A DNA stretch of 64,000 bases from an uncultured Kiritimatiellota bacterium (GCA_934667425.1 CAKULV010000007.1:3022-67021), one strand, 5' to 3'. Shown: positions 52,907-55,317, counted from the stretch's first letter. Notes: generated by a model from the sequence alone, not told the origin. Numbers and translations: made by a program.

Positions 52907-53947
52907 TTAGGCCGTGTACGTTGCCATTGTTCGGCGCAACCCTTCTGCCAGCCCGACCGTGGGCATCCACCCCAAGGCCTTGATCTTCCTGTCGGACAGG
53001 ATCGCGGCGTTGTGCTGAGGCGCGTAGCCGCCTGAAGTCGGTTGCCTTCCGGTCTCGATCGCTATGGGCTTGGGCGCGTTTGCGGCGACAAGTTCGGCAA
53101 ACGCGCGTATCGAGTACGACTCGGCTTGGTTGACGAGATTATAGGCATTGCCGCACTTCCCGTTGAATAGGATCTCGAAGAAAGCCCGTGTCGCGTCGGA
53201 AATGTAACAGTACGACCTTTTCTGCGTTCCGGCGGTGTGAAGCGTGATTTTGTCGCCTTGGAGCGCGGAGCGGATGAATTCGGAAAATGCGCGAATGTCT
53301 CCGTTCAGATCCATCCCGGGCCCGTAGGTGTGGGCCAGGCGGAGCATTTTTGTGGATATGCCGTATTGTCTGCGATATGCGGCACAGAGCGATTCTCCGG
53401 TCACCTTTCCGATCGCATAGCAGTTTGCGACGTCTGATTGGTCGATCGGGAAGGTCATGTCTTCGTTTATCGGTTCGGAGGATTTCATTTCCCCGTACAC
53501 GGCGCCAGACGAAAAGAAGATGAATTGCTCGAAGAGAGGCTGTTCCCTTGCCGCCTCAAGGAGATGATAGGTCCCGATGACGTTAGGGGTCAACACGTCC
53601 ACGGGGATTTCTTTGTCAGGCCGGGGTATGCTTGCCGCATGGACGATGAAGTTGAAGGGGCCGATGTCCGGCAGAGGAGCCTTGCATGCGTATTCCCTTA
53701 TGGAAAGGAGAGGATTGTCGAGATGCCCGTGGAATCTTTCCCTGGCTTTTGCTTCGCTTCTGACCAAGGCGATGATTTTGACATTCCCGAGGGTCAGCAA
53801 TGTCTCGACAATATATGCGGCGAGCATGCCATAGGCGCCGGTCACGGCGACTGTCTTCCCCGACAATGACGTCCATGGGAGTTTTGCAGACAGGATCTCG
53901 TCTATGTCCTCGGATATTATTGCGGAATCTGTGTTGAGCTTTATCAT
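52907..53947 (-). CDS. NAD-dependent epimerase/dehydratase (extended SDR)
   Basis: GKTVAVTGAYGMLAAYIVETLL (GxxGxxG) and YxxxK (YAIGK). Confidence 0.7.
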   Translation of the reverse strand: MIKLNTDSAIISEDIDEILSAKLPWTSLSGKTVAVTGAYGMLAAYIVETLLTLGNVKIIALVRSEAKARERFHGHLDNPLLSIREYACKAPLPDIGPFNFIVHAASIPRPDKEIPVDVLTPNVIGTYHLLEAAREQPLFEQFIFFSSGAVYGEMKSSEPINEDMTFPIDQSDVANCYAIGKVTGESLCAAYRRQYGISTKMLRLAHTYGPGMDLNGDIRAFSEFIRSALQGDKITLHTAGTQKRSYCYISDATRAFFEILFNGKCGNAYNLVNQAESYSIRAFAELVAANAPKPIAIETGRQPTSGGYAPQHNAAILSDRKIKALGWMPTVGLAEGLRRTMATYTA

Positions 53948-55317
53948 GTTGATTGAGCACTGCGGGGTATGGCAGTGGCGATGGTCGAACTGTTGGGTGA
54001 GGCGCCACTAGTAGTGGTGTTGGCCGATCTGTTGGGTGAGGCGCCACTAGTAGTGGTGTTGGCCGATCTGTTGGGTGAGGCGCCACTAGTAGTGCTGATG
54101 GCCGATCTATGATCGGCCAGTACACAAGCGCCCGTTGGCTTCCAATACACTGCCACGCCTTCGCCGGCGGTGGCGATCTCGATGATCTCTGCGTTGTAAT
54201 CAAGGCAGGCTTCGCGGCCAAATGCGACTTCATCGTTGCCACGCCCGATTTCAAGATAGCGCCCGGCGGCAAAGGCCGGCACATAGCGGCTTTCAGGCTT
54301 GAAGCGGGCGTTGGGGATGCATGAGGGCAGAATGCGGATGAAACGGGCATCGGCTCGTGCGCAAAGCATATCACGCACAGCCTTCTCGCCTGGGCTGATG
54401 AATCCGCTCAAGATGATGTAGCCCTTATCGACGGCGGCCTCCATGCGGCATACGGCGGCTGCGATTTGCGTATGGCTGCATCGGCGCGAAATCCGCAGTG
54501 CGACGATCTTTTCGCCCGTGCCGAGAAGCGCGGTGTTTCCTACTCCCTTCCAGTAGTCGCCATCGGCAAGGCGCGGCGAATCCAGCGGCTCGTGTATGCG
54601 CAGCGCATGATCGATTCCGTGCATTAGCGCCCATTTGAGCGGATTGTAGCGGATGTATCGCTCGGTCGCATCGATGAATGTGCGCGTGAGGCAGAGGCGA
54701 TCATGGTAGCCCTGCTGCCATAATTGGCCATTCTGGCCGATCATAGATCGGCCATCATCACTGCCTTGCGGCCTTGGTTGCGTGGCTCGGCCATCATCAC
54801 TGCCTTGCGGCCTTGGTTGCGCGGCTCGGCCATCATCACAGCTTGGGGGCCGTGGTTGCGTAGCTCGGCCCTCGCTGCTCGTGCTGGGAGCAAGGGCAAT
54901 GGCCGAGCTGTTGGGGGTGGTAGTGCTGATGGCCGAGCTGCGATCGGCCAAAATGCTGCGATCGGCCAAAAGAATCTTGGCCAATTTGGTAGTGTGGTTC
55001 TTGAAGCGCCGGATCGCATTCCCCAGCACCTTTAGTGGCTCGTTGAGTCCGGGCCGCAGGTAAACATTGAAGTGGATGTGATCGGGCATCACGACACGGC
55101 CATAAAGCCTTAGGCCATCGTTGAGGCGAGGCATGGCATCAAGCGCATCTGCGACATGCTTTCCGAGCTGAGAAAGGTACACCTCATTGCCTGAAATGCG
55201 GCCAAAGATGTTGCGGCGTGGAGCAGTGGAAATAGTGATGAAGAGCGAGGCACCCCGTGCATAATCCCACGAATGGGTACGGCGATAGCGGCGAATCGTT
55301 GTCGGTTGCGGCGTCAT
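53944..55317 (-). CDS. REP-associated tyrosine transposase (RAYT/TnpA-REP, HUH-Y1) homolog with internal low-complexity repeat arrays, fused to an unknown ~170-aa C-terminal domain
   Basis: ATGA overlap with the upstream ThDP gene. ...RRYRRTHSWDYARGASLFITISTAPRR...VMPDHIHFNV (HUH motif), then a repeat-encoded linker, then LWQQGYHDRL...ERYIRYNPLKW (Y motif), then the unknown domain, then an (SANTTTSGASPNR)x3 tail. Confidence 0.6.
   Translation of the reverse strand: MTPQPTTIRRYRRTHSWDYARGASLFITISTAPRRNIFGRISGNEVYLSQLGKHVADALDAMPRLNDGLRLYGRVVMPDHIHFNVYLRPGLNEPLKVLGNAIRRFKNHTTKLAKILLADRSILADRSSAISTTTPNSSAIALAPSTSSEGRATQPRPPSCDDGRAAQPRPQGSDDGRATQPRPQGSDDGRSMIGQNGQLWQQGYHDRLCLTRTFIDATERYIRYNPLKWALMHGIDHALRIHEPLDSPRLADGDYWKGVGNTALLGTGEKIVALRISRRCSHTQIAAAVCRMEAAVDKGYIILSGFISPGEKAVRDMLCARADARFIRILPSCIPNARFKPESRYVPAFAAGRYLEIGRGNDEVAFGREACLDYNAEIIEIATAGEGVAVYWKPTGACVLADHRSAISTTSGASPNRSANTTTSGASPNRSANTTTSGASPNSSTIATAIPRSAQST
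53990..54106. repeat. 39-bp tandem repeat x3 (ctgttgggtgaggcgccactagtagtggtgttggccgat)
   Basis: Three copies at 53990-54028, 54029-54067 and 54068-54106. They lie in-frame in the RAYT gene tail. Confidence 0.85.
54100..54118. repeat. REP-like 19-bp palindrome GGCCGATC-TAT-GATCGGCC
   Basis: It directly abuts the repeat array and is the inverse-loop twin of the palindrome at 54735. Confidence 0.7.
54735..54753. repeat. REP-like 19-bp palindrome GGCCGATC-ATA-GATCGGCC
   Basis: Reverse-complement form of the palindrome at 54100. Further GATCGGCC copies occur at 54945-54975. Confidence 0.7.
54750..54866. repeat. 39-bp tandem repeat x3 (ggccatcatcactgccttgcggccttggttgcgtggctc); diverged reverse-complement of the array at 53990
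   Basis: Copies at 54750-54788, 54789-54827 and 54828-54866. They encode (RATQPRPQGSDDG)x3 in the RAYT linker. Confidence 0.8.

Follow-up and report, generated by a model that had tools for sequence, protein, structure and literature searches.

In a 64,000-nucleotide stretch of DNA from an uncultured Kiritimatiellota bacterium (GCA_934667425.1 CAKULV010000007.1:3022-67021; hereafter the window), a gene that resembles a transposase lies within a sugar-biosynthesis operon and carries palindromic repeats inside its own reading frame. We consider it likely that this gene encodes a member of an unclassified subfamily of the REP-associated tyrosine transposases (RAYTs; REP, repetitive extragenic palindromic sequence), fused to a DprA-like domain, and that with its cognate palindromes it forms a REPtron that is inherited vertically and co-translated inside an operon for a cytidine diphosphate (CDP)-linked sugar. 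RAYTs are the best-known transposases that bacteria have kept over the long term, and both their cellular role and the copying of REPs are unsettled.

The gene is an open reading frame (ORF) of 457 amino acids on the minus strand, with its ATG at 55317 and its stop at 53944-53946. At each end it shares an ATGA with a neighbour: its start codon with the TGA of the gene for a thiamine diphosphate (ThDP)-dependent enzyme upstream, and its own TGA with the ATG of the epimerase gene downstream. It is thus an operon member by its overlap at both ends, as a preliminary description of this DNA had proposed, and the order ThDP enzyme, RAYT-like gene, epimerase recurs in related loci (below). A longer alternative ORF begins at ATG 55365; the majority of homologue gene calls begin at MTPQP (55317).

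The N-terminal part of the protein contains the motifs of a RAYT. Specifically, H80 and H82 of the HUH motif are invariant in 88 homologues, and the motif aligns with the HUH of ISDra2 TnpA; W200, Q202, G203, H205 and D206 of the W motif and Y221, N225 and P226 of the Y motif are invariant in the same 88 proteins. In class-2 TnpA-Y1 enzymes the tyrosine motif is Y---NP with a W-Q/E motif upstream (Quentin et al. 2018, PMC6006769, Table 1), which is W200-Q201 in this protein, and the W/beta4 motif of E. coli TnpA-REP contacts the GTAG guide (PMC6006769). Because Y221 (YIRYNP) bears this class-2 signature (PMC6006769) and is invariant, it is most likely the catalytic tyrosine, rather than the tyrosine of WQQGYHD; the preliminary description had taken WQQGYHDRL for the Tyr motif, a segment that instead corresponds to the W/beta4 motif. 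Among the NCBIfam models, NF047646 (REP_Tyr_transpos) is the best and sole match, with E-values of 1e-11 to 1e-12. The native protein scores 43.4 bits, in a match split around the insertion that separates helix alphaC from strand beta4, and splicing out this insertion raises the score to 48 bits, with positions 7-137 of the 146 in the model covered; distant relatives score 47-60 bits. The invariant HUH and Y---NP motifs and this best-matching model bear out the TnpA-REP identity that had been proposed, at scores of 43-48 bits that lie under the model's cutoff.

An AlphaFold model built on the alignment of 88 homologues has a confident N-terminal domain (predicted local distance difference test score, pLDDT, 80-95) and a confident alpha/beta domain at residues ~250-400. 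Residues 122-195 (linker pLDDT below 50) and 405-457 are disordered in the model, and these are exactly the repeat-encoded parts. Foldseek searches with the model returned ShosA (E 4e-5), ISDra2 TnpA (E 1e-4) and DprA (E 2.6e-4), so that the predicted structure combines a TnpA-REP fold with a Rossmann-like DprA fold. The model therefore suggests a RAYT-type Y1 HUH enzyme fused to a DprA-like Rossmann domain, which at the level of fold gives an identity to the extra domain that had earlier been noted as unknown.

We found three palindromes of the form GGCCGATC-NNN-GATCGGCC, with a 9-bp stem and a 3-nt loop, in the window, where 0.19 are expected; three were reached in none of 100 shuffles. All fall within the RAYT-like gene. 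Two are exact (54100-54118 and 54735-54753) and had been recognised before as palindromes abutting the arrays, and the third (54931-54949, one mismatch) had been missed, as had an 18-bp duplication of a REP half-site. In the extended form given in Table 1, these are the REP copies P1, P2 and P3, of which P2 and P3 are a REPIN-like inverted pair. With P1 at the 3′ end of the gene and the P2/P3 pair inside it, the arrangement is that of a REPtron. P1 and P2 are the core of an inverted repeat with 30-nt arms (54091-54120 and 54733-54762) that are 97% complementary and 612 nt apart, in agreement with the inverted-repeat-bounded segment described earlier; a second inverted pair (54729-54765 and 54919-54955) has 37-nt arms that are 84% complementary. 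In single-stranded DNA (ssDNA), the predicted folding energy of the hairpins is about -10 kcal/mol, with z of -4.3 to -4.9, and the predicted folding of the entire linker region has a z of -5.5.

Table 1. Features of the RAYT-like gene and its immediate neighbours (window coordinates)
Feature	Coordinates	Strand	Description
RAYT-like / DprA-like fusion gene	53944..55317	-	457-aa ORF; ATGA overlap with both flanking genes
Y1 HUH core, N-terminal half	54958..55317	-	Residues 1-120: beta-sheet, HUH, helix alphaC (predicted)
HUH motif P-D-H80-I-H82-F-N	55066..55086	-	Strand beta3; invariant H80, H82
REP-derived in-frame insertion	54730..54957	-	Residues 121-196; separates helix alphaC from strand beta4; disorder predicted
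W motif / strand beta4, L-W200-Q-Q-G-Y-H-D-R	54697..54723	-	Matches the GTAG-recognising region of E. coli TnpA-REP
Y motif, Y221-I-R-Y-N-P	54640..54657	-	Class-2 signature Y---NP
DprA-like Rossmann (SLOG-type) domain	54109..54570	-	Residues about 250-403 (predicted)
REP copy P3	54928..54950	-	TGGCCGATCGCAGCTCGGCCATC, then AGCA-CT; reads LADRSSAI
REP copy P2	54734..54756	+	TGGCCGATCATAGATCGGCCATC, then ATCA-CT; opposite to P1/P3; coding strand reads DGRSMIGQ
REP copy P1	54097..54119	-	TGGCCGATCATAGATCGGCCATC, then AGCA-CT; reads LADHRSAI
Linker 3x39-bp array	54748..54870	.	Unit: REP right arm, TC-N4-CT, ~24 nt
C-terminal-tail 3.5x39-bp array	53974..54108	.	Unit: REP right arm, flank and CT, ~21 nt; encodes the disordered tail
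REP half-site duplication, 18 bp x2	54937..54971	.	From tandem and inverted repeat searches
ThDP-dependent enzyme, upstream operon partner	55314..57137	-	Pfam TPP_enzyme_N/M/C; synteny in 8 loci
SDR epimerase/reductase (SDR, short-chain dehydrogenase/reductase), downstream operon partner	52907..53947	-	Pfam Epimerase

Tandem Repeats Finder recovers both arrays that had been described in the linker and the tail, each with a period of 39 bp (linker, 3.2 copies and 90% matches; tail, 3.5 copies and 93% matches), as well as the half-site duplication with a period of 18 bp (about 2 copies, 100% matches). The equal 39-bp period of the two arrays is real. The tail array had been described as the linker array in diverged, reverse-complement form, but we rejected such a mirror relation: when the two units are compared, 12 of the first 14 nt, which are the REP half-site, are alike, and 6 of the remaining 25 nt. 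In reverse complement, the best register of the two units gives 18/39 identity, and in direct orientation 17/39. We read the arrays, from their sequences, as tandemly duplicated units, each made up of a REP half-site and about 21 further nt, and not as copies of one another.

The palindrome is not confined to this gene. The peptides LAExSSAI, which follows helix alphaC and again the DprA-like domain, and DGRxxxGQ, which lies just ahead of strand beta4, are encoded by one 23-nt DNA, TGGCCGAxC-NNN-GxTCGGCCATC, read in opposite orientations. We scanned the GTDB species genomes with this 23-nt pattern and obtained at least 120 matches. Among the matches listed, to which the following counts also refer, about 80% are chance occurrences in high-GC taxa, told by a non-complementary free pair; those from Kiritimatiellae, Lentisphaerae, 'Verrucomicrobia' and rumen metagenome-assembled genomes (MAGs) are perfect hairpins, most of them outside a RAYT-like gene, with several dispersed copies per genome in related MAGs. 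The one stem pair that the pattern leaves free is Watson-Crick in 32 of 33 matches of the Planctomycetes-Verrucomicrobia-Chlamydiae (PVC) type, as against 27 of 97 in other taxa, and all nine stem pairs are kept in 11 of 12 two-mismatch variants. In an alignment of 68 copies, 97.5% of the cells are paired, and pairing falls to 12-42% when the partner column is slid; double-sided changes occupy 46 cells, compared with 10.9 +/- 2.6 after shuffling, and none of 500 shuffles reached 46. Since the copies were retrieved with the pattern, its fixed positions are biased; the free pair and the compensatory variants are free of this bias.

Outside the search pattern, a C located 6-7 nt past ATC is invariant in all 68 copies (alignment A4, column 34) and is usually followed by T; the loop reads xCA. 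The three copies of the window all read ATC-N4-CT, with CT as the 6th-7th nt past ATC, and each unit of the 39-bp arrays spans the distance from one conserved CT to the next. We take the cognate REP to be 5′-TGGCCGAxC-NNN-GxTCGGCCA-TC-N4-CT, with a 9-bp stem in which one pair covaries, a 3-nt loop and a downstream C(T). In the REP of S. maltophilia, a perfect stem of 8 bp encloses a 3-nt loop, and cleavage takes place at a CT on the 3′ side of the hairpin (PMC8266576); by this analogy the conserved C(T) is a candidate for the site at which the RAYT cuts.

REP copies occur both upstream of genes and in frame within unrelated coding sequences of related gut and rumen MAGs: in UvrA at three sites in two MAGs, in LeuRS (leuS) at the start of the editing domain, in the GXGXG domain of a glutamate synthase (gltB-like), and three times in a membrane protein (in order of protein, L032:3512; L056:6222 and 7530; L123:4994; L083:2924; L047:6429, 6485 and 6837). 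These in-frame copies read as DGRTxFGQ or LAExSSAI. In the genome RUG14528, a RAYT-like gene (L044) and a uvrA copy (L032) are both present. Half-site tandem duplications adjoin full hairpins at dispersed copies too (e.g. 'RFDGRTRFDGRTRFDGRTMFGQ' in L042), and therefore the arrays of the window gene are a property of the element and not of the gene. In a Kiritimatiellia MAG, one copy directly precedes the start codon side of a portal gene of a Mu-like phage (L024:660), so the element occurs also in or beside prophage DNA.

Together, these observations argue that the palindrome is a real REP-type mobile DNA element rather than a peptide repeat. The converse explanation, that the repeats were selected as low-complexity protein linkers or are assembly artefacts and that there is no element at the level of DNA, has almost no likelihood in our judgement. 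The repeats are in frame and predicted to be disordered, as it would require, but the same DNA is used in both orientations to encode different peptides and is found in unrelated genes and upstream of genes, its stem covaries, and arrays recur with differing whole-unit copy numbers in many independent assemblies. The palindromes had earlier been suggested to be the cognate REP of this RAYT; their dispersal in related genomes supports this, as do the different palindromes that flank distant members of the family. One such member has TCGCAAGGGC-AA-GCCCTTGCGA at both ends of its gene (L138) and another is flanked by ATGGCAACGC-AA-GCGTTGCCAT (L136), while L140 and L141 carry arrays of other units. 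This is the pattern of REP-RAYT co-evolution.

Several observations weigh against the assignment of the gene to a RAYT/DprA-like fusion and of its palindromes to REPs. The score with NF047646 is under the curated NCBIfam cutoff of 80 bits, a Pfam search of the RAYT-like protein gives no match, Y1_Tnp included, and the surroundings of the Tyr helix are modelled with moderate confidence (pLDDT 56-68). No GT[AG]G is conserved at the foot of the hairpin: the 5′ flank is unconserved among the 68 copies on the ATC strand, and the other strand reads GAT-GGCC. GTAG is found 7 nt from the P1 and P3 stems, in the window only. The 64-kb window holds 0 REP copies outside the gene, and the matches of the genome scan are lower bounds, overall and per genome. 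Finally, the likeness of the C-terminal domain to DprA is one of fold, and no sequence method connects the two.

This last point was pursued in several ways. There is no Pfam match of the domain to DprA/Smf (PF02481, DNA_processg_A) at E<=1, no match of a profile of the domain to PDB sequences at E<=10, and nothing for the C-terminal domain in searches of NCBIfam and of the PADLOC collection of defence systems, so that a tie to DprA or to defence systems at the sequence level is rejected. The same domain profile, searched against 1.84 billion representative proteins, matches 265 cluster representatives at E<=0.001; canonical DprA, being far more numerous than 265, evidently escapes it. In the listed matches of 290-430 aa the domain occupies the C terminus, and of ten matches that were sampled, eight also score on the RAYT hidden Markov model (HMM). 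The domain shares a SLOG-type Rossmann fold with DprA/Smf and ShosA, and differs from them in lacking detectable sequence homology and SAM or winged-helix accessory domains, and in its fusion to an HUH nuclease. DprA proteins bind ssDNA and load RecA. The fusion therefore suggests how a RAYT could pass a cleaved strand to the host recombination machinery.

The protein belongs to a coherent family. More than 717 homologues, 340-470 aa long and of the same architecture, were recovered in a protein search, and JGI has given one of them the name RayT. Their alignments contain about 80 invariant residues distributed over both domains, and differences in length are limited to the linker and the tail. 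In distant members from metagenomes (30-50% identity), the N and C parts are contiguous, without the linker insertion. Within the species or genus cluster of the window, linkers of 50, 58, 61, 63, 71 and 84 aa and tails of 28, 35, 48 and 61 aa occur. The steps between strains are of 13 aa, which is one 39-bp unit, or 8 aa, which is the P2 loop plus right arm; every variant is in frame, and the strains have 1-3 copies in the linker array and 1-3 in the tail array. Such whole-unit differences in copy number recur across many independent assemblies, and thus an assembly artefact is excluded; they are also the answer to the test of array-length variation that had been proposed.

The RAYT-like gene is under purifying selection. 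Between the window and an 88%-identical locus (L062), the N-terminal part has a ratio of nonsynonymous to synonymous substitution rates (dN/dS) of 0.28; the core and the DprA-like part together give 0.084, equal to the 0.083 of the adjacent ThDP gene. The preliminary description had proposed a domesticated RAYT carrying its own REPs in frame, or one in the middle of rearrangement. The existence of more than 700 homologues, their synteny and purifying selection sustain the first of these. Nothing points to the second; the order is collinear in all homologues seen.

The inverted repeat formed around P1 and P2 raises a possibility akin to the mid-rearrangement state of the preliminary description, namely that the 612-bp segment between them, with the Tyr motif and the DprA-like domain, is inverted or excised as an on/off switch of the enzyme. 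The 30-nt, 97%-complementary repeat is real, and HUH enzymes act at such hairpins; nevertheless, this explanation is very unlikely. The more than 700 homologues, among them dozens from independent assemblies of the same species, all keep one order from the N to the C terminus. No inverted or deleted form was found among them, and inversion or excision between P1 and P2 was rejected for this reason. In addition, the segment contains no long ORF on its reverse strand, certain strains that lack the complete P2 palindrome retain the gene, and the 253-aa 'short forms' stem from gene calling, the underlying ORF being intact. With respect to the latter, we considered split or frameshifted, phase-variable alleles (233-253 aa, starting MIGQNGQ) and rejected them, as the DNA of L209-L211 contains the intact full-length ORF. 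In many strains the public gene calls start at a Met inside REP P2 (MIGQNGQ..., 233-253 aa), which leaves about 580 nt uncalled (L209:3423-4762, L210 and L211; proteins P0272, P0275, P0277 and P0282). These short calls are a systematic annotation artefact of the family, in which gene callers often truncate the RAYT-like gene at a Met encoded by the REP.

The position of the gene is conserved. The order ThDP enzyme, RAYT-like gene, epimerase is found in 8 loci (L001, L003, L044, L062, L085, L205, L206 and L209) that span 58-99% RAYT protein identity; L001/L002 and L209-L211 are from the same species as the window, from the human gut, Hadza samples included. Apart from one metagenome contig with two copies, low copy number, vertical inheritance and a conserved position hold for the gene. 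In the 64-kb window the RAYT-like gene is present as one copy, and scans by tblastn, peptide motif and loose DNA matching found no further RAYT genes or REP remnants there.

These data bear on whether the gene is an autonomous insertion sequence (IS) of the IS200/IS605 type that has recently jumped into the operon. In favour of this are the Y1 HUH fold and the contig just mentioned (L127), on which two copies stand within 9.4 kb. However, the Tyr motif is Y---NP and not Y---Q, the IS200 model NF033573 scores 14 bits (14-20 bits overall) against a cutoff of 55, the window has one copy and lacks tnpB, the gene has stayed between the same two neighbours over lineages 35-45% apart in protein sequence, and it overlaps each of them by ATGA. 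We regard such a recent insertion as extremely unlikely. IS200/IS605 TnpA (subclass 1.1) is characterized by Y---Q, at least 55 bits with NF033573, many near-identical copies and a frequent tnpB partner, as opposed to Y---NP, 14 bits, a single copy and a ThDP enzyme and an SDR as neighbours here. L127 is the sole multi-copy case seen; its two RAYT/DprA-like genes (356-1381 and 7641-8723) are in opposite orientation, with a family 1 glycosyltransferase (GT1) gene between them.

Around the RAYT-like gene, Pfam identifies genes for nucleotide-sugar metabolism. Upstream are genes for a nucleoside triphosphate (NTP) transferase, an SDR like CDP-glucose-4,6-dehydratase and a DegT-type enzyme. In both the window (57097-60400) and L001 (4990-10004) the operon comprises the NTP transferase, the dehydratase-like SDR, a DegT/E1-like enzyme, the ThDP enzyme and an SDR, followed by a GT10 glycosyltransferase (fucosyltransferase family). 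In yersiniose biosynthesis, YerE is ThDP-dependent and YerF is an SDR. We take the operon to resemble a pathway of this type, for a branched 3,6-dideoxyhexose, in which the upstream ThDP-dependent enzyme would presumably be YerE-like. The coding strand at the gene borders contains no promoter-like and no terminator-like sites, and a role of the REPs as promoters or terminators was rejected on this ground. Other close members of the family have different neighbours, with rml genes and GT28 (L004), GT1 and a hexapeptide transferase (L126, L127), DUF5672 (L130) or Gtf3_C (L207), and every close-subfamily locus examined is a polysaccharide or glycosyltransferase cluster. Distant members (30-45% identity) are in unrelated gene contexts.

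Relatives also carry REPs at the borders of the gene, one at the junction of the ThDP and RAYT-like genes and one downstream in the 5′ region of the epimerase gene. Within the ThDP-enzyme gene, a REP is in frame at an identical site in L044 (5543) and L085 (1066); a REPIN is in frame directly past the GxxGxxG loop of the epimerase in L062 (6040-6190) and also in L003 (11239-11263). Comparison of window 51873-54119 with L062:5969-8000 showed that DNA homology between the two loci (88.5% over 5.9 kb) ends exactly at REP P1 (window 54089). Past this point, the window encodes an epimerase of ~30% identity to those of L003, L205 and L062, to which it is not orthologous, and then the GT10 glycosyltransferase, whereas the epimerase of L062 is orthologous to those of L003 and L205 (55-60% identity). 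A breakpoint at P1 with a different downstream epimerase means that the REP marks a cassette-replacement junction. G+C content is 0.65-0.68 in the ThDP gene (55600-57000) but drops to 0.53-0.57 across the epimerase gene and the beginning of the GT10 region (52400-54200); the low G+C is consistent with a foreign origin of the downstream cassette. In some strains a window-type protein has an L062-type tail (P0030, P0033, P0034). A general exchange of REP-bounded cassettes was rejected, since the junction is seen for the window versus L062 alone and the lineage of L003, L044, L085, L205 and L206 is collinear through the epimerase.

Another reading is that the protein is an exapted, locus-specific recombinase that no longer serves the spread of REPs: co-expressed with the polysaccharide operon, it would nick the in-frame REP hairpins at gene borders, its DprA-like domain would feed ssDNA to RecA, and downstream sugar-gene cassettes would be swapped to diversify surface antigens, with the arrays as by-products. 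This is unlikely, in our view. The restriction of close-subfamily loci to polysaccharide and glycosyltransferase clusters, in spite of their differing neighbours, speaks for it, as do the end of homology at P1 with a different epimerase downstream and the loading of RecA by DprA proteins. A further point in its favour is the ORF P0265 (L208:235-2097), of another, lower-GC lineage, in which a MurU-like sugar-1-phosphate nucleotidyltransferase is joined by a Ser-rich linker to RAYT-like and DprA-like parts within 620 aa; this is either a second independent link of the family to nucleotide sugars or a read-through of adjacent genes. On the other hand, the distant members are in unrelated contexts, a single cassette breakpoint at a REP was seen and the L003 lineage is collinear, mobile DNA gathers in polysaccharide loci anyway, and the association could largely reflect vertical inheritance of one ancestral insertion.

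How does the system compare with known RAYTs? With the REPtrons of RAYT/TnpA-REP enzymes, such as E. coli TnpA-REP (PDB 4ER8) and S. maltophilia group 3 (subclass 2.5), it has in common a Y1 HUH core with HUH, WQ and Y---NP motifs, a single-copy gene at a fixed position flanked by its own palindromes, a REP with a perfect 8-9-bp stem and a 3-nt loop as in REPSm, a CT set at constant spacing 3′ to the hairpin as at the mapped cleavage site (PMC8266576), and a REP sequence that varies by branch of the family. It differs in the C-terminal DprA-like domain of ~180 aa, which is present in 0 of the 12 subclasses (PMC6006769), in translational coupling within a biosynthetic operon, and in the absence of a conserved 5′ GT[AG]G, the subthreshold HMM score and the lack of a REP outside the gene in the window. 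Subclass 2.4 tnpA-REP genes of Cyanobacteria and Bacteroidetes (PMC6006769) also contain a length-variable insert made of short DNA repeats. Their motifs are NH[IFV]H and YIxNNP, their insertion is between beta3 and alphaC, their REPs are GTAG 'long' or 'double foot' REPs, and they have no large C-terminal domain (PMC6006769); in contrast, the present group has DH[IV]H and YI[RA]YNP, an insertion between alphaC and beta4, and an additional REP and array as a C-terminal tail.

In-frame REPs inside tnpA-REP genes have already been published (PMC6006769), and the findings are for this reason an extension of known biology and not a new principle. Palindromic repeats in frame in unrelated genes have been described in several tRNA synthetases and in the verrucomicrobium Opitutus terrae, where the two uvrA genes both contain them, as have REP arrays flanking exopolysaccharide genes (Di Nocera et al. 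2013, PMC3733652); the Rickettsia palindromic elements are a related case (Ogata et al. 2000, as cited in PMC3733652). The present REPs are similar to these intragenic elements in their in-frame insertion into housekeeping genes, including uvrA and tRNA synthetases, and in the dimers and clusters of repeats that encode tens of residues. They differ from the published intragenic REPs (PMC3733652) in that they are neither GTAG nor CGTC tagged, in their hosts, which are uncultured gut and rumen Kiritimatiellae and Lentisphaerae, and in the DprA-like domain of their transposase. A search of the available literature found no RAYT-DprA or SLOG fusion and no REPs in Kiritimatiellae, and both the DprA-like fusion and the non-GTAG REP appear to be new. 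Published descriptions likewise do not cover the set of DH[IV]H, WQ and YI[RA]YNP motifs with an insertion between alphaC and beta4, or long-term, translationally coupled residence in a CDP-sugar operon. The RAYT/DprA-like group is probably a new RAYT subclass.

For this RAYT and its REPs, we propose the following mechanism. REP copies would have landed in frame at two permissive sites of the gene itself, as an inverted pair (REPIN) in the surface linker from helix alphaC to strand beta4 and as a further copy at the C-terminal tail; half-sites of the REP, duplicated in tandem as units of 39 bp and 18 bp, would then have expanded both sites into disordered, strain-variable segments with the frame intact. 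By analogy with TnpA-REP and IS608, H80 and H82 may hold a metal ion and, as in the E. coli and S. maltophilia enzymes, Y221 may attack ssDNA at the conserved CT beside the folded REP hairpin. The resulting 5′-phosphotyrosine link would be rejoined elsewhere, by which REPs spread, and the DprA-like domain could bind the flanking ssDNA or recruit a partner such as RecA. The 39-bp units from CT to CT may arise via repeated cleavage and joining or via slippage at half-sites. Only in-frame products would survive, because the gene is under selection and both sites are disordered surface segments. The data establish the anatomy of the sequence, the folds, the family with its conserved catalytic motifs, the covariation and dispersal of the REP in relatives, the synteny, the purifying selection and the gain and loss of units between strains; we infer how the enzyme catalyses, where it cleaves, what its DprA-like domain does and how the arrays originate.

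The family is a natural experiment in which the substrate resides inside the disordered loop and tail of the enzyme, with whole-unit changes of the arrays and a C(T) at a fixed distance. In genomes of Kiritimatiellae and Lentisphaerae from the gut and rumen, annotators can use the peptides LAExSSAI and DGRxxxGQ to spot REP insertions in otherwise ordinary proteins such as UvrA, LeuRS, GltB, SDRs and ThDP enzymes. In addition, two contigs with PVC-type loci, L062 and L068, are deposited in bins named 'Limosilactobacillus gorillae' and 'Anaerovoracaceae bacterium', which is probably binning contamination.

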